The position numbers and the translations under genes are program-made. DNA of 59,114 bases, filler included, from Asterionella formosa (Eukaryota): assembly GCA_002256025.1 (NCBI GenBank). It is 7 parts of 7 records of this genome, joined end to end, with 100 filler letters (N's around TTAATTAATTAA, not from the genome) between each part and the next. Parts side by side here need not be neighbours in the genome. Positions count along the whole stretch, not along the records: positions 8,478 to 16,845 come from NKIB01012270.1; 6 more parts are not named here. The stretch is one strand, 5' to 3'. The notes beneath the pieces are model-generated. The model was not told the origin of the DNA, made no database searches, and saw only the letters and a program-made list of their open reading frames with translations. Below, piece by piece: positions 1-50,400 of the stretch. Numbering within the stretch: position 1 is the stretch's first letter; every line of letters begins with the position of its first letter.

Positions 1-732
1 TCTACCATAAGCCGAAATCGACTTCGCATCGCTTGTTGAAGGCAATCGTGTTATGTCGAGAGAACGCGCGTGCCTGGTGTCAATTTTCTAACACAAAATC
101 GTAAATAAATAGTTGAAGTTGAAGACACTTCCATGACGCATCAAGAAAATAAGCGTGACTGGTGTCAATTTTAACAAAAGATCGTCTTCGCATTGCTAAA
201 TGCAGTCCTGTGATGTATCAAGAATACAAACTCCATTTCAAGCGTAAATTTGTACATGATAATTTTATACTCAGTGGTGATGGCAGGGCACATGCATTTT
301 AGTGCAGCCGACCACGCATGGAATATGAAACAACAGTCAAACATAAGGTTCATGGAGTTAACATTACTAACACTACTAACCTTGTTCCTGTTCGGAATCC
401 GGTTCCTGTTCCTCTCCTGTCGTAGAAATTCTACGCAGAGCAAATTATCATACTAACACAGCTAACTCTATTCATGTTATTTCTTCCGTGCATGTTTTAT
501 ACAAGCAAATCCATGGGTTAACCCTATGATGATGTCTGGTTAGGGTACTGTGCCGAGGGCCATACCTGCCGACTTTTATGAATCTGCCCAGGAAATTTTA
601 GTGGTCATGAACCCTCCTGTTGGTCAGTTAGTGGCCGATGTGCCTAATAATAAAAAACCCAGCAGAATGCTGAACATATCGCCATAACAGAAGTATGTGC
701 GACAATAGCAACAATGCTATGATTTTAATAAT

Positions 733-778
<46 letters not shown>

Positions 779-2562
779 GAGTGACAGCACATTGAATATG
801 TCTTACGTCAATCATTACCTGAATAACTTTTGTTATTTACAGGATAATTACAGGTTGGATATCACCGCTATTTTAACACGGGATATTTTAAAATGCAAAG
901 CTTAATTGCATTTCATTCTCATGTCATAAGCAACCCAAGCATTGGTGGCTGCGTTGTATATGCATGACAAAAGATGAATATTATTTGATCGCGGTGGGTC
1001 CTGATCTTTAACTTATGAATGGATTGCACTTCAGGACATTTCGTTGTAAATCGAACATTTATAATTAATATATACCATGCATAGCAGGTATGATCCCACT
1101 TTTTCTTCCTTTGCCAGTACTCAGCATGATGCTCTCAAAATTTAATCCGTCAGCTTGTATCTTGCAACAGAAGTACCTGGTCTTAGTACCTTCTGCGAGT
1201 TCGCTCATTTATCCAGCTGATTATTTTATGACGGATAATTTACAAATACCATGTCCTGTCTGTATGGTGGATATATCAGTGTTTTTCTGCATGTCATGCA
1301 TTCCTATAATGATACGCACAGAACATTTGCACAATGGTTTGTTATATTTTGATACACCTATCAAGGATTATGTTTACACATGGAACATTCAAGCTCCTAA
1401 CTATACAGATACGGAAATATGCTGTTATGGCTGAAGTCCTCCAGCACCATTCTATATGAAATGGTCTGTTAAAGAAACTGACTCATTGGGATATCGATAA
1501 ACTCCAACTGACTTCAAATTTTGGTCTTCAAATCTTAAAACAGGATTGAAATGGAACTAGACCATTTGTATGGTTACCTATGCATACATCAACAAATTTG
1601 TGCATCAATGAAAACATTGTTAGTTGCAGATACACTCATGAGTTATCCTGATCGTAATTTTCCTTTCCATATTTTTTACTAATGTTTCTGATTGTCAATT
1701 AAGAAACTTTCAAAGAATTTCGCTCTATGTCATTGAATGCGGTTCTACATGTTCACACTGAACATCATATTTTTTCTTTATTACCCTACACAGAAACTCA
1801 GCGTGTTCTCCGGTGGAGGATTTATATTGAAGAATATCTTCTCACTTTTCACAATATGAAGGGTACTGATAATGTGAAATATTACAGATTCTATCTCTCG
1901 CCTCCCGAGGCTTGAGTCTTTGGTGGGGGATGATATTGGACCGAAATTTTCGACATCAACATCCATTTCTACTTTCTCAATTGAAGTAGATGATGAACCT
2001 TTGTTTACCTGTTCCCTCAATCATCCAATTTTGGCAGACAATATTCAATATCCTCTGGAATATTACTCCATACATGATAGACAATTGCTGGATATACAAT
2101 TGATTCTCAATCAAACAACTCATCTCATTCTCAATCAACAAACCAAACACATCTGTTAAATTTTCCCTCTATCAATTTTCATCATATACATTTAATGTAT
2201 TTTGTGAAGAATCCAGGAGATACTTGACGTATTGTTATTCTTACATTACTATCGAATCCTATGGTACAGTTACTTTTCAACAAACTATGCATACAACGGA
2301 ACGAATTAATATCCATTACATCAAACCTTTTCAAAGGTAAAAGGTTTTTCCTTGGTGTGGGAGAGTGAGCGATCTTGCGCATCAATACAGATGTATATAG
2401 GGTTAGTGTTATATCATATATGTATAAGAACTCAATAATGAGAGAACTCGACTAACCCTCATTGTATACTTTGATGTCGACTTGGAGAACGAGTTACACA
2501 CAAGGATTAACAAATAAGCTCATATATTCAACAAATACTACTACTTCTAGTTAGATACTTCA
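1..2562 (+). mobile_element. Degenerate non-autonomous Ty3/Gypsy LTR retrotransposon, 3' part (5' end cut by the contig start)
   Basis: Colinear with 26371-29798. Decayed RT (MKWSVKETDSLGY*TPT, ~1456-1510), RT/RNase H connection (ADTLMSYPDRNFPF) and RNase H (TQRVLRWRIYIEEY..KGTDNV) remnants. Polypurine tract GGTGTGGGAGAG directly precedes the LTR. Confidence 0.9.
2366..2562 (+). repeat. 3' LTR (197 bp, TGA...TCA)
   Basis: Near-identical to 25446-25642, 29615-29798 and the reverse complement of 8478-8665; TG...CA ends; preceded by the PPT. Confidence 0.95.
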
Positions 2563-2563
2563 G

Positions 2564-5439
2564 GGTCTACTTTTAAGGCCAACAGATCATGACATTGATG
2601 ATAATGTTTTAAAATGTTACAAGAAACTAGCAGCACCCCTGATCTCAGGGGAAACAACCCCGACAAGGGTGGATGATATTGAATCCCAGTTGAAAGCTTG
2701 TCCTGAAGCTGCAAAGGTGCAAGACCGCAATGGAAACACTCTGTTGCACTTTGGAATAGAAGGAGGGGCCAATGTGGTGGTTATCAAGGCCCTTTTGGAT
2801 GCCTGTCCTGATGTCATGATGATGAATGACGACAAGGGTAACACTCCACTGCACCTTGGCATGAAAGTCCGGGCTCCGGTGGAAATTATAAATGTTCTTT
2901 TGGAAGCTTGCCCTCAAGCTGTAACAATAAAAGCCAAAGATGGTGAGACTCCTCTTGACCGCGGTCTAGGAGGGAAAAAGCGAGTATCACTTGAATCCAT
3001 CCAAGCTATTGTGGAAAAATATCCCGAGGCCATTAACTCCATGAAAATGCCCTTTATTCCACTTCATTTGGCAATTTTTCGAGGTGAAAAAGCTCCAGAG
3101 ATCAAGCAGATCATAATAAAATACCCAGATTCAGTTGCAAACTATGGCACTCCAAACCTGCAGTCACCTCTTCTTCTCGCGTTGCAACAAGGAGATTATC
3201 CTGATTTTGAGGTCGTCCGTATTTTGATTGAGAAAGACCCAGATGCGACTAACACTCTTGATAATGAAACGAGTTATAATCCATCCACATTTTGTGTATC
3301 TGGTCTCCTTCAATCGATAAAGAAATATGCAACGAAATATGCAACCCTTGATGTTGGAGAACACAAGCTAGATTTCCTGAGACACGAAGCGGAAATGTTA
3401 ATGATGAACTTGTTGAAGGAGAAACCGTGGAGTAATATTGAAATTTGGTATAAGGTTTTGCGGCTGAAATTTGGTATAAGGTTTTGCGGCTTTTGTGTGC
3501 ATCCCTCACTGACATTGGCGACCTCAAGCAATTGTGTATGCTAGACACACCCCAAGCTGAGAAAATTTCATATAGGCTGCGTTTTTTCATTGTTCCAGAG
3601 CCGCTGGGCTTTTTCTTTTGGGTGCTCGCCACCAAAGAATTCAATCAATTCGAAAGGACTCTCCCACGCCTCGATTTGAATCATGAACCAATAACTAATT
3701 GGACCGTTTTGGATAACTTGGTGGATCTTGGAACAAAAGATGCGGCCAATATATTCTTTCAGATAGAGGAACAGCTGAGAAGGTCTGAAGAACAGGATCG
3801 GCTGGAAATCTCCATTAATAATCATAGCAAAACAATAGTAGCGTCATTTCAGTCCATTGCTCAAGTTAAAAAAGAAACATGGCAAAAGGTTGCCAATAGG
3901 GCTAAGTTGTCCACGCTTCCCAAGCTCAAAGAGTGGGGTGATAAATACGGAAGGTTTCTTGGAAAATATCAATTTGAGGAGGAGAAGCATTTGTCAGATA
4001 CCTGTATGGTTATGTTTGGCACTGAATTGGTCGTTGTATCTGGGGCCACGCAATTGACCAATGTAGCATTCAAGCTCTTTACAGAAAGGCCTGCATTCCT
4101 GCGTGAATTGGCAAAGCGGAACAAAATCATGAGCATTGATGGTGCAAAAAAATTTGTAATCAGTGTGAGGGCTGCATATACTGACAGCATGGAAGGGTTG
4201 GATGAATATGGTCATCTGGGTATTGAGATTCAACTTAACCAGACAGTCAAATGGCGAAAAGGAGACATTGAATTCAATCATCTCCTAGTCATGGAGTGCG
4301 GGAACAAGAATGACCTCAGTGGTGTTATATCGCATAAAAACATTGCAGGCAAGGATGCACTAATGGTTCGTTTCATAGCAATCCAAATTGCCAAGTGCCT
4401 TCATTTTCTAAATGAAGAGTGTAATGTTATGCACGGAGATGTGAAGGCTCGAAATTTCGTGTCTCGTGGTGAGGGTGTTGGATATGCTGCGATCGATCTT
4501 GATAACGCAGCATCAATAGACGAAAATGGCGAGGAGGCTGGTCAGAAGCGAACAAGCTCTGGATACTTGCCTCCCGAACAGGCTGCTGTTGAGTACCATT
4601 TGCGAGAGAAGGAACATTGTGTTTCAGAGGATTTCGCCAGTAAGGGTCCTGCAAAAATTAAAGCCAGTCACAAATATGACATGTGGTGCTTTGGAGCCCT
4701 TCTATATAATCTCTGCACCGGTCGTCAACTTTTTGATATGAATGAGCGTGAAGAAGTATTGCTGGATGAGCTAAGCAAAATAGTAAATTGGAGTGATGAA
4801 GAATGTGTTAAAAAGGTCGATAACAATGTGTGGGATGACAATGACTGGAATCCCATGAAACCTCTGCTAAAAAAATTGCTGAAGAGAAATCCAGAAGAGC
4901 GCCATCGTCGTTGGGCGGATATTATTGAGAAACTTAAAGATGGTGACATTTTTAATCACGTAAGAGAAGTCAAGGATGTTGTGGTTGTAACCAAGGATGT
5001 TGTGGTTGAAAATAATAGTTTGCTGCATGCTCAGTCTGTGATACTCCAAGAGATAAAGTTGAGCATCATCCAAATCCCTAATTTGATGGTCACACTTCAA
5101 CAAGTGAAATTCCCATACATGTTTAGGATTCTCACTCGTGAAGAGTTTGCAAGTTTCCAGAAAACAAAGGAAGAGAGACCTTCAATGATTGAACAAGCTA
5201 GCAATGAAGCACAGAAAATGACAGAATTTTCTGGTGAATGTTGCCATGACTTTCTTGACTCTTTGAAGAAAAAGGAGACAGCCACTGCTATCAAAAAAGC
5301 CATCAAAAGTGGCTGGCATCTTTGGAGTGTGAATGAGACTGAAATTGTATATCTTCAGTTGTTGTGTGTGTTGACTCTCAATCCCCTTGTCTCATATAAA
5401 GTTGAAACAAACAAAAAAATCGAGTGGCATTTGACTTAA
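2564..5439 (+). pseudogene. Ankyrin-repeat Ser/Thr-type protein kinase, disrupted (5' end cut by the LTR element, frameshift at 3440-3491)
   Basis: Ankyrin repeats (GNTLLHFG, GNTPLHLG, GETPLDRG, QSPLLLAL) in ORF 2669-3544. Kinase motifs VAFK, HGDVKARN, DLD (DFG position), SSGYLPPE and DMWCFG in ORF 3484-5439. The two frames fuse if one copy of a 26-bp tandem duplication is removed. Confidence 0.85.
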
Positions 5440-6704
5440 AGGCAAAACATGGGAAGATGCACTGAAACAACATGTTCTTCATGATTCCAAGAATAATGAA
5501 AATCATGTAACATATATCTCTGAAGAATTGAAGAAAAAGCTTTGTGGAACAACACACACACAGAAACTAGTTTTAACTAATAATTGAAAGGGTTAGGGTT
5601 AGGGTACCAGTACCAGTATAGAGTTTAGCTGATTTTAGGATCATGTACCAGTATACATAAGTTTCTTCATCTTCTTGTCTGAAAACATAAAGTCATGTAG
5701 TGTAAACAACGGAAGTAAGTCACATTTAAAATATGATAGTAAAAGAATTATTGTAATAATACAACTATAAACAGCGAAAATTAGAGATGCAAATGGCACA
5801 TTTTTTCATGAAGTTTATGGATGCACAATTCAAAACAACCATTTTCTGAACAGATTTGACACTGTGACAGTAGCTGCGAAATCAATACAACGACGACTAT
5901 AGCAATAACATGATAGACTGTAGGAAAAAAAGTTATAACAAGCATTTTAAACTAAGAATTGGTTGTTTGTATTGACGCCGCAAAAGGATGCGTTGCATGC
6001 CTTTTGGTTTCTTGACAATGCACCCCTACTGGTATGTATGAGTGAAGGAACTTTTTGCTCATCATGCATGATGCACAAAAATCACAGCATGATTTGATTG
6101 GCTTGCGGAAATTACTGCAAGACACAACTCTCTTTATAACCTTCACAAGATAATATGTGTGTAGAAACAGGTATCGTCACTCTAGAAAAAAGTATGTTAC
6201 TTCTGCTAATTGTCTGGCGCACAAGGAAGTGCACCAAAATTTGATACAACAATTCATCATAGAAGCAAACCGATTCAACCAAGAACAATATCACTTTTTA
6301 TTAGCATTAGTATGTTTGCAACTATGGAGAAGAGCATGGGTATGACGTTTTGATCAACAGAAGTTGGCAATGCCAAAATCGCCATCATCCAGTCTCCCCA
6401 TCTAAGTAAATCTGGTCGTGGCTATGTCCATTTGAGGAGACCGAAGCACGGGATTTACGGTACCGGTATGTGACTGAAATATTGATCCATATCAAATGCA
6501 CTTAAGCCTTTTCATCTCTATCCATTTATTACTTAGATAGTGAGGTCTTGTAGTAAGTATGTAATGTATAATATGTTTACATATATGCCTACATGTATTA
6601 TATTAGGCTGTATTAAAACATACCTTCGTTGCCCAAGTTGTTGTACCGGTAACCTGGTTGGAGAATGGAAAGATTTGAATTCCACAGCAGGGCCACTTTG
6701 ACTA

Positions 6705-7919
6705 AGGGTCGTTCTTATCATTTTCGATTTGGTATCATTTTTTTTGAAAAAGTATCATGTAACGGCTACTCGATTTAAACCGAAAAAATCCATTCTCCAC
6801 AAAAATAAAAATAAAATTGTATCACCAAAAAGTATCACGAAAATTCAACAGTTACGGGCTGGCTACAAACATGTGCTTTTCCTTCCTGACTACCAGTACA
6901 TAATGGTACCAAGCCAGTCCTCAAACCATGCAAGAAATCTACGCGAATTATGTATATGGACTACTATAGTCAATGGTATTTGCACAGGTATTTGTTGTAG
7001 TCACGTGATCATTTTCGTATTCTATTGCCTAGTACCTTGTCATGAATTCCCGGACCAGGTACCAGGGTACCAGGTACCTGTAATTAGATAGCGGGTATGT
7101 CTCTATGCACATGACTCAATCTGTTCAATTTTCGACTCTGTGGTAGTCGTTCTTTGGTGTTGTGGCTGAACATTACCACACACGGCCGCTATAATGATTG
7201 TATTGTGCTCCTTTGATGCACACCGTAATAATTTTTGTGTATATTATCAAGATGTCAATAAAAGTACTGCTTGCACAGGTATTTGTTGTAGTCACGTGAT
7301 CATTTTCGTATTCTATTGCCTAGTACGTCCTGGACGAGAGATAGTAGAATGTACCGGTAGTGACAGCCAAAGCCAAAGTATTTGCACAGCTAGTATATGT
7401 CGTAGTCACGTGATCATTTTCGTATTCTATTGCCCATTAGCTACCTTGTCATGAATTCCCGGACCAGGTACCAGGGTACCAGGTACCTGTAATTAGAAAG
7501 CGGGTATGTCTCTATGCACATGACTCAATCTGTTCAATTCTCGACTCTGTGGTTGTTGTTCTTTGGTGTTGTGGCTGAACATTACCACACCCAGCCGCTA
7601 TAATGATTGTATTGTGCTCCTTTGATGCACACCGTAATAATTTTTGTGTATATTATCAAGATGTCAATAAAAGTACTGCCCTGCAGGCGTATTTTCGGTT
7701 ATTTTATTAGTGACAACGGAAATGATACCCGCGTGAAAATGTCAGTATCACTGATACCGTTTTTGGAGGGGGCAAAAAAAGGTATCAATTTTGTATCAAT
7801 GATACAAAATTGATACCATCAAGTTACCGTTGCTGATACCGTGTTTTGATACCAACCGTCATTTTTTGCCCGCAACCCGGAAATGATACAGCAAATTCGG
7901 AAAAGATAAGAATGACCCT
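6705..7919. mobile_element. Non-autonomous TIR DNA transposon (~1.2 kb, PIF/Harbinger-like)
   Basis: Terminal inverted repeats AGGGTCGTTCTTATC / GATAAGAATGACCCT, TA on both flanks. Many subterminal GTATCA/TGATAC motifs at both ends; no real ORF. Confidence 0.8.
6980..7679. repeat. Internal ~290-300 bp direct repeats inside the TIR element
   Basis: 6980-7270 recurs at 7381-7679, with a partial third copy at 7271-7326. Confidence 0.9.
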
Positions 7920-8101
7920 TAGTCCAATGTATGTATGATACCAGTATTTAACATAGATTAATGACCCCGAGGGTCATTTTAGCTTACCCGATATTCAGCT
8001 AAGCAAAATTCCGGAAATGGATTGAGAATTTTTCCATTTCGACTTCTACTGACAAAATGTTGGTACAAAAGCCTCACAGACAAAGTGGAAAGTGAAAAGA
8101 C

Positions 8102-8477: not shown

Positions 8478-8665
8478 TAACTAGAAGTAGTAGTATTTGT
8501 TGAATATATGAGCTTATTTGTTAATCCTTGTGTGTAACTCGTTCTCCAAGTCGACACCAAAGTATACAATGAGGGTTAGTCGAGTTCTCTCATTATTGAG
8601 TTCTTATACATATATGATATAACACTAACCCTATATACATCTGTATTGATGCGCAAGATCGCTCA
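8478..8665 (-). repeat. LTR of the same Gypsy family (5' or solo LTR, 3' end cut by the contig edge)
   Basis: Reverse complement of 2366-2553 with one visible substitution. It is preceded by CCAGG, not by the PPT. Confidence 0.95.
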
Positions 8666-9424
8666 CCTGGTACCTGGTACTGGCAAATAAATACGTGGTC
8701 AGGTATGTAACACCATGCCAATCATCGTCAATCATGCCGTCTGAAGGAAAATGAGTTCATTGATGATGTCAGTGGCACTTCGTTGCCAAACCAATGCAGT
8801 TGGTTGTTGGATTCTGGTCTTCTCATGGGATTCATGTACTTGCATTGTCCATATTTCTTCGGACGAACAATGATATTGGTATATCTGATGTTGGCAGCAA
8901 CAAGTTTTTGCTCCAGTCATTTATGGGCTTAATGGATATTCTAGTCATATAGCCTACATGTGTACATGGCACTAAAACAACCATGCATGGTTTAAGCTAA
9001 ACTTTAATGCTTGCTTTGAACATGTTATAATATTATTGCTGTAGACTCGGTATTATCTTTACAAGACCAGAATGTTAAGTTATATCATTCACATATTGAT
9101 TGATTTTAAGTATGCCCGATTTCGTCCTCACCATTACAATTCTCACTCTATCCTGCCTGCCGTTGCTGAATTTGGGCTTGCAACAGGGACCTTGACTTTC
9201 GATAGATCCCATCATCTGCTGCCTGATATACTAGTTAGAACAGATCGGTGAGTACAACAGTGAAACACTGGATGACTATTTGTCTAAATTCCGATTTGAT
9301 TGCTTCTACAGTCCATTTTGATCGCTTCAGTCATTGTCTATCATTCTGCACAGACATTTTGGTTCAATTGTATCTATCTAGCTACACAAAGTCCGATGTA
9401 TGTATCAATGCCTACTTTTTGAAG

Positions 9425-25409: not shown

Positions 25410-25445
25410 TTATGTATGCGCATCCATCAGGTACCAGGTACCTGG

Positions 25446-25642
25446 TGAGCGATCTTGCGCATCAATACAGATGTATATAGGGTTAGTGTTATATCATATA
25501 TGTATCAGAACTCAATAATGAGAGAACTCGACTAACCCTCATTGTATACTTTGGTGTCGACTTAGAGAACGAGTTACACACAAGGATTAACAAATAAGCT
25601 CATATATTCAACAAATACTACTAATTATAGTTAGATACTTCA
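25446..25642 (+). repeat. 5' LTR (197 bp)
   Basis: TGAGCG...TACTTCA; 4 visible differences from the 3' LTR over 184 bp. Confidence 0.95.
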
Positions 25643-28600
25643 CTTTGAATTCAAAAAGAGTCCAATTAGAATTAATATTGTTGATGTCCTCTCAAGTTCC
25701 AGTGGTCCCATTGATGAAGGATAACAACATAGTACTAAACATCAAGATTCAAACTTCTCAAGCCAGGTCGACATTTGGAGTCTTACAGCAAAGATATGAT
25801 CAATTGACGCTCAGGGGAAGCTTGTTTATTGATTTCCTCAGTAAATCCTGTGATATGGCTAACACATATATCTTCAGTCCAGCAGATTCCTTGCTTGTTC
25901 ACCTACTGCTACAAAAGATGACTCACAGATATCGTCTTGTTTGACTGGATCATGAGCGTTGCAATACATTCAGATGCTCAGTCCCACCATAACAGTCTCA
26001 ACAAGAAGTCATAGTGATGTGGCTGGAAGATTACCTTCTTCATGATATCTCTGAGAGTCAATAACAGTGGCTGGATGCCATGATATTACTCAATAAAACA
26101 TTTGAACATGTTTATAATCGACTTCGCTGCCTGTCTCAAGACCTTAAAGAAGCTCCTAAAACTCATGATAACTCATCCACAAGATCAAGAGGTTTCCGCC
26201 AAGGAAGATTTGAGGTTGATTGTCATTTTGTTTGATCGACAATGCGTGGCAACAAGTGTTTGAATGGAACAATGAAAAGAACACAAAATAATTGATTCGC
26301 TTGGTTTTGACTTGCTTCGAGAGTCAACAATCATTCAAAGATCAACTCAAGCACATCCTCAAGCATGAGTTCTACCATAAGCCAAAATCGACTTCGCATT
26401 GCTGACGGCAATCGTGTTACGTCGAGAGAACGCGCGTGCCTGGTGTCAATTTTCTAACACAAAATCGTAAATAAATAGTTGAAGTTGAAGACAATTCCAT
26501 GACGCATCAAGAAAATAAGCGTGACTGGTGTCAATTTTAACAAAAGATCGTCTTCGCATTGCTAAATACAGTCTTGTGATGTATCAAGAGTACAAACACC
26601 ATTTCAAGCGTAAATTTGTACATGATAATTTTATACTCAGTGGCAATGGCCGGGCACATGCATTTTAATGCAACCGACCACGCATGGGATATGAAACAAC
26701 GGTCAAACATAAGGTTTATGGAGTTAACATTACTAACACTAATAACCTTGTTCCTGTTCGGACTCCTGTTCCTGTTCCTCTGGCGTAGAAATTCTACACG
26801 AAGCAAATTATCATACTAACACAGCTAACTCTATTCATGTTTTTTTCTTCCGTGCATGTTTTATACAAGCAAATCCATGGGTTAACCCTATGATGATGTC
26901 TGGTTAGGGTGCTATGCCGAGGGCCATACCTGCCAACTATTATGAATCTGCCCAGGAAATTTTAGTGGTCATGAACCCTCCTGTTGGTCAGTTAGTGGCC
27001 GATGTGCCTAATAAAAAATCAGCAGAATGCTGAACAGATCGCCTTAACAGAAGTATGTGCGACAATAGCAACAATGCTATGATTTTAATAATATACATAT
27101 ATATATATATATATATTTATGAGCGACAGCACATTGAATATGTCTTACGTCAATCATTACCTGAATAACTTTTCTTATTTACAGGATAATTACAGGTTGG
27201 ATATCACCGCTATTGTAACACAGGATATTTTAAAATGCAAAGAATGCATAAGCTTAATTGCATTTCATTCTCATCTCATAAGCAACCCAAGCAAGGACTG
27301 GTGGCTGCGTTGTATATGCATGTCATAAGATGAATATTATTTGATTGCTGTGGGCCTTGATTTTTAACTTATGAATGGATTGTAATTCAGGACATTTCGT
27401 TGTAAAATCGAACATTTATAATTAATATATACCATGCATAGCAGGTATGATCCCATCTTTCCTTCTTTTGCCAGTACTCCGCATGATGCTCCCAAAATTT
27501 AATCCGTCAGCTTGTATCTTGCAACAGAAGTACCTTTTCTGCGAGTTTGACGATTTGTCCAGCTGATTAATTTATGATGGATAATTTACAAATACCATGT
27601 CCTGTCTGTATGGTGGATATATCAGTGTTTTTCTGCATGTCATGCATTCCTATAATGATACACACAAAACATTTGCACAATGTTTTGTTATATTTTGATA
27701 CAGCCACCTATCAAGGATTATGTTTACACATGGAACGTTCATGCTCCTAACTATACAGATACGGAAATATGCTGTTTTGGCAGAAGTCCTCCAGCACCAT
27801 TCTATATGAAATGGTCTGTTAAAGAAACTGACTCATTGGGATATCGATAAACTCCAACCGACACTTCAAATTTTGGTCTTCAAAACTTAAAACAGGATTG
27901 AAATGGAACTAGTCCATTTGTATGGTTACCTATGCATACATCAACAAACTTTTGCATCAATGAAAGCATTGTTAGTTGCAGATACACTCATGCGTTATCC
28001 TGATCGTAATTTTCCTTTCCATTTTTTTACTAATGTTTCTGATTTTCAATTAAGAAACTTTCAAAGAATTTCGCTCTATGTCCTTGAATGCGGTTCTACA
28101 TGTTGACACTGAACATCATATTTTTATCTTTATTACCCTACACAGAAACTCAGCGTGTTCTCAGGTAGAGGATTTATATTGAAGAATATCTTCTCACTTT
28201 TCACAATATGAAGGGTACTGATAATGTCAAATATTACAGATTCTATCTCTCGCCTCCCGAGGCTTGAGTCGTTGGTGGGGGATGATATTGGACCGAAATC
28301 TTCCGCATCAACATCCATTTCTACTTTCTCAATTGAAGTAGATGATGAACCTTTGTTTACCTGTTCCCTCAATCATCCAATTTTGGCAGACAATATTCAA
28401 TATCCTCTGGATTATAACTCCATACATGATAGACAATTGCTAGATATACAATTGATTCTCAATCAAATAACTCATCTCATTCTCAATCAACAAACCAAAC
28501 ACATCCGTTAAAATTTCCCTCTATCAATTTTCATCATATGCATTTAATATATTTTGTGAAGAATCCAGGAGATACTTTGACGTATTGTTATTCCTACATC

Positions 28601-29614
28601 ACTATCGAATCCTATTATTTATTGGTATCATCAGATGTTAGCTCATGTGCGTATGACAAGATGAGATGCCACATTTTCTACACATTTTTACTATCCTCCA
28701 TTAAGAGCAAGAGTGGAACATATTGCAAGCATATATGAAACATGTCAAAACGTACAAAATTACCTGATGCTTGGTTTTGGTGAACTTCCAACAAGGAATG
28801 CATTGTTATTACAATGCTCAGAAGTCACAGTGGATTTCATTGGTCCATGGAAGATAACAGTGACTGCACAAGCGATTGAATTTCATGCTCCAACTTGAGT
28901 TAACACAGTCACCAATTTACCAGAAATTTCACACATCAATAATAAGACATCAGAATATATTGCGATGAAATTTAAAAATGATTGGTTAGACAGATATCTC
29001 CGTCCAGAAGGTTGTATACATGACTATGGAGGTCAATTTACTGGTATTCCTTTCATACACATGTAAGTGTTGAATGGAATTAAAATTGGGACCATTACAG
29101 TCAAGAATCCACAAACAAATGCTCTCCGTAACGTTTACATCAATCTATCAGTAACAGTCTATGTATGAGTTATGTTAAAGGCTCATCCTCCAATCAAGGA
29201 ATTTCAAGTTCAGAATATTGTGGATACCAGTTTGCTGCATCATATGCAGCTCGAGCTACAATTTATGGTACATTGTGTATTTTCACCAGGAACATGGGTT
29301 TTCCAACATGATTTGATTACAGATATGTAATTGATATTGGGATATCAATGTCGATAAGTGATAATTGACAAATGACTACTTCGTGATAATGTCCGCCGTT
29401 GTTCTTGCAATTACAAAGTTCTTGATGAGGTTTTAATCCTATTAGATAATCCTACTACCTTGGATAACCATGGACGAGGTCCTTATTCTATTTATTCAAG
29501 TACATGCCAATGGTACAGTTACTTTTCAACAAACTATGCATACTACGGAACGAATTAATATTCATTACATCAAACCTTTTCAAAGGTAAAAGGTTTTCCC
29601 TTGGTGTGGGAGAG

Positions 29615-29798
29615 TGAGCGATCTTGCGCATCGACACAGATGTATATAGGGTTAGTGTTATATCATATATGTATCAGAACTCAATAATGAGAGAACTCGA
29701 CTAACCCTCATTGTATACTTTGGTGTCGACTTAGAGAACGAGTTACACACAAGGATTAACAAATAAGCTCATATATTCAACAAATACTACTACTTCTA
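29615..29798 (+). repeat. 3' LTR, lacking the last 13 bp
   Basis: Matches the 5' LTR up to TACTTCTA and then diverges. Confidence 0.93.
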
Positions 29799-48850: not shown

Positions 48851-48933
48851 AGGTCCGGTAAAACACGTTATTAACTTATTAAGCTAAATAACTCGATTTC
48901 CAAGCCTTCCAAGGGTACCAGGGTATCGCCTGG

Positions 48934-50400
48934 TGAAGTATCTAATTATTCTTAGAAGTACAAGTAGGTAGTAGTATTTGCAACTCGTTCTCGTAGGTCG
49001 ACACTGAAGTATTCAATATGTGTTAGTTGAGTTCTCTCCTGATCGAGTTCTGATATAATCCATGAAACCCAAACCCTATAGGTGTAAGTGTAGTTGAGCG
49101 GGATTGCTCAATCTCCCACACTAAGGGAAAACCTTTCACCTATGAAAAGGTTTGATACAACAAATATTAATTTATTCAGAAATATGCAGAGTTCATTGAA
49201 AAGTGACTGTGCAATTGGCATGCACTTGAATAATTGTATTAGGACCTCATCCAGCATGATCATCCAAGGTAGTTGGATTATTCAATAGGATAAGAATCTC
49301 GTTGCGAACTTTGTAATCACAAGACCAATTGAGTTTAGGAGAATCATTTCATATAAAAGAAAATTGACATGCGTGTGAAGAAAAAGAACCTGCTATGCAA
49401 GGTATATATTAATTGTAAATTTTTGATAGTCAGTGAACTGGCTGGTGGAATCAAAAGTAGCAAATAGAGTAACTTCTTTCTCTAATAATCAAGGTAAACT
49501 ATTTGTACTACTAGATGATGTCACAGCCCAGTGACCATTATGAACATTTGATCATCACAATCCTGACTTCCACTTTTCACCTGCCTCTCCAAAGGAAAAC
49601 ATTCCTACTCCCATTCAGATGAGCTCTCATATGTTGGGGAGTAACTTGAGGTACTACCTGCCACTACCAGGCGTTCATGTGTCAAAGATAGGGACCCACC
49701 ACTTTCAAATAACATTTGCATTAGTTCATGCATATGAACAACATCCACCAATCCTGCCTGGGGTTGTTCCTACTAATCACATGGAAATTAAATTCAAATG
49801 AAGCTAATGTATTCTTGGGCAGAAAAACATAAGACCGGGCGGAATTGGGTGTTGATATCATCATGCATGGGATAATATTGAATCCTCTTATGCAATTTAA
49901 ATATCACCTGCATTACAAAACGGCGGTATCAAGAATGAAGTTGTCCTGTAAATAACAAAAGTTATCCAGATGATGAATGACATGAGACAAATTCAATGTT
50001 TTGTCATATATTATATAATAATTGCTATTGTTGCACATACGCGATCTGTTCAACATTCTGCTGGCTTTTTAGGCACAAAGGCCACTAGATGACCAACAGG
50101 AGCGATCGTGACCACTAAAATTTCTTGGGCAGATTCATAAAAGTCGGCAGGTATGGCCTTTGGCACATTATCCTAAACAGACATCATCATAGGGTTAGCC
50201 CATGGATTTGTAGAAAATTTGTATGCAAGAAAAACATGAACTGGGTTAGCTGCGTCAGTATGATAATTCGCTCTGTGTAGAATTTCCACACAAAAGGAAC
50301 AGGAAATGGATAAGTAGTGTTATTATAGTGCTAATATGATAGCTTTAGGGGCCTCATGTTTGACTGTTATTCCACAATTGCATGCATGGCTGACTGTGAT
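48934..50400 (-). mobile_element. Older, internally deleted copy of the Gypsy family (3' LTR 48934-49110, PPT, internal remnants)
   Basis: The reverse strand shows TTAGATACTTCA as LTR end, TGTGGGAGAT|TGAGCAATCC as PPT/LTR junction, the integrase tail (ATCAAACCTTTTCATAGGT) and blocks matching ~300-950 (e.g. GCCATACCTGCCGACTTTTATGAATCTGCCCA). Confidence 0.85.

Follow-up and report, generated by a model that had tools for sequence, protein, structure and literature searches.

A Ty3/Gypsy retrotransposon family in the Asterionella formosa assembly inserts in a fixed register within a palindromic GGTACC repeat

Introduction

Why should copies of one LTR retrotransposon family, lying on separate contigs of the Asterionella formosa assembly, abut the same five bases of host DNA? 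According to a 2017 review, only errantiviruses and their derivatives integrate sequence-specifically, at TATA, CGCG or ATAT cores; it presents the way in which an integrase comes to read bases as an open question (PMC5408687). More widely, nearly all reports of strict sequence choice concern non-LTR elements, Dada and Ginger1, with the errantiviruses and their 4-bp cores as the LTR case.

The stretch of DNA that raises the question (hereafter the window; 59,114 nt, made up of seven contigs of ~8.4 kb each with N spacers between them) holds four copies of a single LTR repeat family, at 1–2562, 8478–8665, 25446–29798 and 48934 to at least 50305. From these the initial annotation proposed that the family targets CCWGG beside GTACCWG repeats, perhaps as a safe-harbour or promoter-proximal strategy. 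To that proposal we add genome-wide counts, controls, a spacing test and an apparent empty allele.

Results

LTR–host junctions in the window

Re-reading of the window showed that three of its four LTR–host junctions, each on a separate contig, abut CCWGG exactly as first quoted: GCTCA|CCTGGTACCTGGTAC (8665/8666), GGTACCAGGTACCTGG|TGAGC (25445/25446) and, in an older copy, ...GCCTGG|TGAAG (48933/48934). The junction TCA|GGGTC (2562/2563) is likewise the sole exception among the four. The features are as follows.

1–2340, plus strand: decayed gag-pol remnant of the target-selective Gypsy family (contig 1), 93% identical to 26371–28615 and without a long ORF.
2354–2365, plus strand: purine-rich tract GGTGTGGGAGAG upstream of the 3′ LTR, read from the sequence; GAGAG precedes 295 LTR starts genome-wide.
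2366–2562, plus strand: full 197-bp 3′ LTR, TGAG...TTCA, with the off-motif junction GGGTC; adjoins the ankyrin/kinase reading frame.
8478–8665, minus strand: young LTR, 5′ or solo, represented by its initial 188 bases, beginning TGAGCG, truncated by the contig end; 99.5% identical to 2365–2553.
8666–8670, plus strand: CCTGG (CCAGG in element orientation), the 5-bp target-site duplication unit, called from the sequence and the genome-wide register (423/647 ends).
8669–8674, unstranded: GGTACC target half-site spanning the duplication edge as GG|TACC; outward positions 4–9 over 126 junctions.
8666–8680, unstranded: host (CCWGGTA)n micro-array, apparently LTR-free in contigs from two other studies.
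25431–25445, unstranded: host target array GTACCAGGTACCTGG, read from the sequence, of which 25441–25445 is the duplication unit.
25446–25642, plus strand: 5′ LTR belonging to a decayed but near-complete copy, 97.5% identical to 2365–2562.
25644–25655, unstranded: perfect 12-bp palindrome TTTGAATTCAAA at the expected tRNA primer-binding site, read from the sequence; relatives have a palindrome of other sequence there.
25656–29614, plus strand: decayed internal region of the copy starting at 25446, by sequence comparison.
29615–29798, plus strand: 3′ LTR of that copy, by sequence comparison, lacking its final 13 bases and with no readable junction.
48929–48933, unstranded: CCTGG at the 3′ junction of the older copy, reading TCA|CCAGG on the minus strand; CGAT, not TACC, comes next.
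48934–49110, minus strand: older, shorter 3′ LTR (~76–83% alike, by sequence comparison); remnants of the internal region reach at least 50305.

The window itself offers no readable target duplication, because the 3′ LTR at 29615–29798 is 13 bases short at its end; the unit at 8666–8670 is called from its register, and the duplication itself was demonstrated on two-ended copies at other loci.

Several neighbouring features of the window were recorded on their own account. The off-motif LTR adjoins an ankyrin-repeat frame (2555–3544); a protein kinase domain (3454–5439) comes after it in a different frame, and a tandem duplication of ~26 bases lies near 3441–3491, at the change of frame; 2555–5439 is probably a broken ankyrin–kinase gene. 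An old dispersed repeat, ~80% alike and with 412 candidates in the assembly, extends from 8711 to ~10060, starting 45 bases from the 8665/8666 junction, and summed depth is very high across it. By eye, the segment at ~6709–7925 resembles a miniature element of the Harbinger type: GGG..CCC inverted ends flanked by TAA/TTA enclose a 300-bp block that is duplicated and contains GTACCAG arrays. At 5590–5612 a short telomere-like run, (GGGTTA)x2-GGG, is fused directly to GTACCA repeats.

Anatomy of the element and its integrase

The element is a Ty3/Gypsy LTR retrotransposon, an assignment that follows from its frame order of protease, RT, RNase H and integrase. It has direct LTRs of 197 bp with TG..CA ends (pairs 89–96% alike; fetched copies 2.8–5.1 kb), and both a purine tract before the 3′ LTR and a 5-bp target duplication are present. 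In the copy at L144 gag continues into protease and RT as a single frame, with RVP followed by RVT_1, and one natural frame of 926 aa carries RVT_1, RT_RNaseH, Integrase_H2C2 and rve, the last of these weakly (E 0.015). There is no env frame, the integrase stop lying 26 bases ahead of the 3′ LTR. A near-identical open integrase stretch of 341 codons recurs on dozens of contig ends, which suggests recent activity.

The integrase consists of an H2C2 zinc domain, a DDE core (both from Pfam, the core weakly) and a short beta-rich end. Residues D87, D150 and E186 are invariant in 47 sequences, and a GPY/F motif, RGPY, is found at 305–308. In the structural model (mean pLDDT 89, pTM 0.62) the protein ends in a short beta-rich domain. 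No chromodomain was matched in Pfam at E 0.1; the protein stops 33 residues past GPY, and the model there has beta strands only. Inspection of the C-terminus, where a targeting domain might have been sought, thus revealed neither a chromodomain nor an added domain. The best sequence and fold matches are the visna and foamy-virus integrases, with the Ty3 intasome 7q5b among the top folds. Relatives number 860 at E 1e-20 or better, and Nitzschia inconspicua (52%) is the only named eukaryote among the best 120; this match, together with the freshwater and algal metagenomes that contain the flank at 8666, makes a diatom host probable. In the foamy virus (PFV) integrase, Ala188 and Arg329 are described as contacting target bases (PMC4422553). 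The positions aligned with them here are Gly153 and about Asn296, columns that vary among the 47 relatives; to judge from the alignment, no residue of the integrase is indicated as a likely reader of bases.

The TGG with which a tRNA primer site starts is absent past the 5′ LTR, its place being taken by the 12-bp palindrome. In the family this begins one base after the LTR (25644–25655 in the window). Relatives down to 36–39% integrase identity keep a palindrome of different sequence after CA, at presumed LTR ends in the distant cases. Besides the window, palindromes at this place were noted at L144:36–47, L145:330–341, L175:771–782, L179:3973–3984, L183:176–187 and L185:2863–2874. The family is a candidate for tRNA-independent priming in a Gypsy lineage.

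CCWGG is duplicated host DNA

CCWGG is the 5-bp target duplication and not element sequence. The two-ended set comprised 12 of 13 copies, L096 having been dropped since its 5′ match is internal sequence. Nine of the 12 carry an identical 5-mer on both sides, always CCAGG or CCTGG, so that the two flanks agree in the middle base (9/9), and the other three have unequal flanks (ACCGG/CCAGT, CAAGG/CACGG and CCTGG/ACTGG). Five of the 12 (L081, L082, the full copy of L083, L090 and L097) had been chosen by a CCWGG 3′ end, leaving the 5′ side unselected; among the copies not chosen on the 3′ motif, 4/7 are perfect. In the young subfamily the off-motif 5′ ends GATGG, AGCGG and GGTGG each find the same 5-mer at a 3′ end on another contig. 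If these ends are indeed pairs split across contigs, as we infer, the far half-site is absent in two of the three.

The flank at 8666 was also found in freshwater and algal metagenomes, of which four runs were compared. In run X2 (record 9) LTR and flank lie on one contig across the 8665/8666 junction. In run X1 (record 1) the contig matches the flank over 8665–8856 with no differences and continues for 16 letters not aligned to the LTR, at a depth of 38 where the single-copy level is 34.5; in run X6 (record 18) the flank match ends at 8665 and 10 letters not aligned to the LTR follow. These two runs come from two other studies, the evidence in both being the point at which the match stops. 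Both contigs appear to be empty alleles, in which the motif was present before insertion. Within the assembly, a search for an empty allele at 8666 gave only the junction's own contig and the old repeat from 8711.

Junctions across the assembly

Exact-match counts of LTR ends in the 68.4-Mb assembly, which were not de-duplicated and miss diverged copies, gave 586 3′ ends and 602 5′ ends. Internal CTTTG follows 246 of the former and the purine-tract GAGAG precedes 295 of the latter, so that the internal neighbours of the LTR are not CCWGG and the motif is not part of the element terminus. CCWGG lies next to 226 of the remaining 340 3′ ends and 197 of the remaining 307 5′ ends. Together these make 423/647 non-internal ends (65%, in denominators that contain mutated internal junctions and contig ends), ~385-fold above a background of ~0.17%, the density of CCWGG in the window being 1.69 per kb (99 sites). 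Extraction of the junctions genome-wide therefore sustains the proposed targeting, in that the duplicated 5-mers are far from random.

Loci picked by element sequence alone and de-duplicated on their flanks gave CCWGG at 92/126 junctions and CCWGGTAC at 85/126, loci L081–L100 being excluded from the frequency counts. The youngest subfamily, picked by integrase match only, is as strict or stricter (CCWGG at 22/28 junctions). About one-third of ends are off-motif, and 15/126 junctions depart from CCWGGTAC at three or more places. Many junctions lie on short contigs.

The target is a 13-bp palindrome with a spacing requirement

Read outwards from the LTR, positions 1–9 are C, C, W, G, G, T, A, C and C at 116, 106, 116, 110, 112, 114, 110, 113 and 99 of 126 junctions, respectively; base identity is conserved at 79–92% at eight of the nine positions, and position 10 is uninformative. 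Genome-wide, TAC follows CCWGG at 202/226 junctions compared with 49/198 CCWGG sides in the window (Fisher p 1e-44). From this profile and the TAC continuation it follows that the pre-insertion target is the 13-bp palindrome GGTACCWGGTACC, that is GGTACC-W-GGTACC, two hexamers one base apart that are each cut GG|TACC. The 13-bp word occurs 9,910 times in the assembly (reversed control 5) and its 11-base core, GTACCWGGTAC, 17,533 times (control 117). The outer half-site NNNGGTAC is kept at 29 off-motif 3′ ends (231 minus 202). The sequence-specific integration proposed in the initial annotation is thus supported, and in a stricter form: the GTACCWG repeat is itself the target and does not simply lie beside it.

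A similar sequence, GTACCGGTAC, is present at 3,538 sites in the assembly. No ACCGGTAC junction was seen (0 of the 14 D-starting rows able to hold one); had such sites been used equally, ~41 of these junctions would be expected. GTACCGGTAC is unused, and correct half-site spacing is needed. Additional repeat units were present less than 100 bases away from 71/85 used sites, as against 48/81 unused ones (p 6e-4). Copies inserted a few to ~110 bases apart in one repeat tract were noted at L026:1053–1456 and L083:35–533; at L140:767–961 a 3′ LTR continues into a new gag, and L139 holds two bodies 5.0 kb apart.

Copia elements as controls

A second Gypsy family was sought as a control. The assembly search with a distant integrase piece returned the target-selective family itself at the top, and Copia families therefore served instead, an LTR pair being found in only 7/36 Copia regions. 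In one Copia family 80 of 221 LTR starts are internal, and CCWGG, allowed in either of two registers, adjoins 7/141 of the rest (5%; Fisher p 7e-44 versus Gypsy), a frequency ~13 times below that of the Gypsy family yet still ~15-fold above background. In a second Copia family, with 6-bp duplications, an eye count of 29 junction reads found one insertion in CCAGGG; several more of its insertions are in GTAC-rich tracts, and one Copia lies in GTA-CCAGGG-TAC. A low-copy Copia family with AGC..GCT ends (L218:2002–7622; L282–L286) has 2/3 insertions at CCWGG and makes a 5-bp duplication, one full copy duplicating CCTGG within TG-CCTGG-CA; it possibly has a second sequence-specific integrase. An LTR related to this family, with an AGT end, was noted at L237, and Copia families with TG..CA ends (L243, L234, L256/L276 and L273/L275) show apparent 6-bp duplications CCAGGG, GAGTAT, TAATGT and TAGTCT.

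Since the Copia controls show little CCWGG, the strict register is a property of the target-selective Gypsy family, and the Copia enrichment at CCWGG suggests that the elements share a response to something in the host or in the physical properties of the DNA. Among loci of relatives elsewhere (eight metagenome, 12 MAG-contaminant and three IMG/VR), no host junction was readable for any distant relative, because contigs were collapsed or cut or held a single LTR; the only one with CCTGG at its junction is L141, a metagenome contig of the same Gypsy family. The targeting is real, strong and family-specific.

Genomic location of the insertions

A run of 300 bases free of stops in any frame is present in 6/108 flanks compared with 35% of window background, and off-motif insertions are likewise non-coding (stop-free flank in 2/29). 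None of 14 motif sites in the window lies in a long ORF. Among background motif sites 19/79 have a stop-free 300-base flank, so that in this set, drawn mostly from Copia regions, the word is not restricted to DNA without coding potential. In 47 flanks examined for promoter bias, none was detected, the nearest long ORF pointing away in 16/26 (p = 0.33). Of the strategy first suggested for the family, avoidance of coding DNA is therefore upheld, for off-motif insertions too, while the promoter-proximal part is not.

As to the origin of the repeat, 810 kb were scanned for TA-flanked inverted-repeat elements that might leave it as a scar, and none with CCWGG-type ends was found. The same scan gave one TA-flanked family with CCG..CGG ends, of ~650–850 bases and in three copies (L104, L225 and L032). 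This family is a possible source of TA-CCGG-TA scars, with which a scar origin would fit in part.

Discussion

An account of this family has to accommodate its element anatomy, the 5-bp duplication, the fixed register, the spacing rule, the lack of an added domain, the family specificity and the non-coding location. The likeliest mechanism, to which we give a probability of roughly 0.6, is that a symmetric integration complex reads the GGTACC half-sites directly. A two-fold symmetric complex would set one active site on each half-site and join the LTR ends to opposite strands with a 5-bp offset, in each case at the GG|TACC step. Residues of the catalytic core and of the SH3-like C-terminal domain would contact the target, much as they do, weakly, in retroviral integrases, and a single good half-site could suffice at low efficiency. 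Open, intergenic, repeat-rich tracts may add a weaker regional preference common to Copia, and the ~10,000 perfect non-coding sites would offer the family a large and mostly harmless landing ground. Direct readout is favoured over tethering because insertion falls at the axis of the palindrome, whereas tethered elements land at a distance, away from the bound site and not within it (PMC3706591). Against a purely intrinsic reading stand an integrase without an extra DNA-binding domain, the enrichment of Copia at the same motif and the preference for clustered sites. If direct readout is true, integration into naked DNA should occur at GG|TACC in GGTACCWGGTACC and should be lost with GGTACCGGTACC or with scrambled words.

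The main alternative is modelled on Ty3, which is tethered by TFIIIB. A host DNA-binding protein might bind the GGTACC repeat and phase the integration complex, the integrase itself having little sequence preference. Unrelated Copia elements enriched at the same word and the use of clustered sites (71/85 versus 48/81) would then be explained, and a repeat that is very abundant and intergenic, with 0/14 window sites in long ORFs, is what would be expected of a binding site. We nevertheless hold this to be unlikely: insertion is at the symmetry axis, DNA that a bound protein would cover; known tethered elements insert beside their sites (PMC3706591); the integrase is without the C-terminal extension or chromodomain used for tethering; and the Copia enrichment lacks a single register and is lower by a factor of ~13. 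Copia also enters into the quite improbable case of indirect readout, in which an easily bent palindrome (central CA/TG step, flanking TA steps) in nucleosome-poor DNA would suit any integrase with a 5-bp stagger, through no base-specific contacts. Copia families with 6-bp duplications do hit the same tracts in no fixed register, the AGC..GCT Copia with its 5-bp duplication is at CCWGG in 2/3, and retroviral sites are reported to prefer flexible pyrimidine–purine steps centrally (PMC4422553). The shape-driven retroviral consensus is however described as weak (PMC5408687, PMC4422553), whereas here eight of nine positions are conserved at 79–92% by base, beyond step type, and the similar GTACCGGTAC is unused.

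There could, finally, be no targeting, the pattern having arisen from random insertion followed by selection, from repeats added later beside the LTR ends (scars, slippage) or from artefacts of assembly. Arrays of the repeat are unstable and are concentrated around elements, many junctions are on short contigs and the genome-wide counts were not de-duplicated. Even so, a base-exact register is beyond what selection can fix, the youngest subfamily is equally or more strict (22/28), the middle base is the same on both flanks in 9/9 perfect cases, and 92/126 junctions retain the motif after de-duplication of flanks. The LTR-free site is moreover apparent in two other studies, and the metagenome contig L141 shows CCTGG. 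We consider this explanation extremely improbable and, including its artefact form, already largely refuted.

The element differs from known systems in several ways. Like Ty3 (TFIIIB) and Tf1 (Pol II promoters), it belongs to Ty3/Gypsy and avoids genes by targeting. Ty3 inserts at a distance from its protein-bound site, with no strict sequence at the insertion point. Tf1 also is described as landing at a distance from a protein-bound site with no strict insertion sequence (PMC3706591), whereas the present element inserts not away from the site it recognises but at the palindrome axis. Nor is it a chromovirus, the integrase having no C-terminal chromodomain. With the Drosophila errantiviruses and two-ORF derivatives (gypsy, ZAM and Idefix) it shares a Ty3/Gypsy integrase, a register-fixed palindrome and a motif that extends beyond the duplication (PMC5408687, PMC3276498). 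Population data on errantiviruses give about one extra conserved base per side, and palindromic motifs past the duplication are reported there to be general, mostly weak and AT-rich (PMC3276498). Errantiviruses have an env frame, or two separate frames derived from such an element, and duplicate a 4-bp TATA, CGCG or ATAT core. The present element has neither: it lacks env, encodes gag-pol as a single frame and duplicates the 5-bp CCWGG within a GC-rich word of 13 bp, and it differs further in its TG..CA ends and its non-animal host.

A further parallel is Ginger1, DNA transposons with a Gypsy-like integrase that carries GPY/F and with a CCGG duplication in 75% (PMC2836005). The likeness lies in a Gypsy-related integrase with GPY/F joined to a highly specific GC-rich duplication, and the CCGG specificity of Ginger1 shows that a Gypsy-type integrase fold needs no added domain to be sequence-specific. 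Ginger1 differs in being cut-and-paste, with inverted repeats, no RT and a 4-bp duplication, and no long flanking palindrome is described for it in the account cited (PMC2836005); the present element has LTRs in place of terminal inverted repeats, and an RT. In target choice it is thus errantivirus- or Ginger1-like, yet it has the defining features of neither group. Diatom Gypsy elements are reported to form their own cluster, GyDi1/GyDi2, which, compared by description and not by GyDi sequence, have the same pol order and probably the same host group (PMC2806351). That paper, its supplement aside, describes no target preference for them. R2 and its kin, and Dada, similarly insert at one set point of a repeat that is abundant and dispensable (PMC3706591), but they are non-LTR elements or belong to another DDE superfamily, and their targets are RNA genes, telomeres and microsatellites. 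Repbase, closed journals and supplements aside, where a prior description is possible, we found no paper in the literature with CCWGG or GGTACC as the target of an LTR element.

A bolder synthesis, which we regard as speculative and on the doubtful side, is that an ordinary-sized Gypsy integrase without an added domain reads a 13-bp palindrome almost as a restriction enzyme would, more strictly than the LTR elements compared, and has specialised on the excision scars of another class of transposon (TA-CCWGG-TA) as pre-tested safe sites.

With a 341-residue integrase region, a 13-bp target of two half-sites, hundreds of insertions, near-misses and many relatives, the question of how an integrase comes to read bases becomes testable in vitro, and the system would offer a starting point for tools that integrate site-selectively. 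For the host, the targeting explains how ~300 insertions are tolerated in a 68-Mb algal genome with its coding DNA largely spared.
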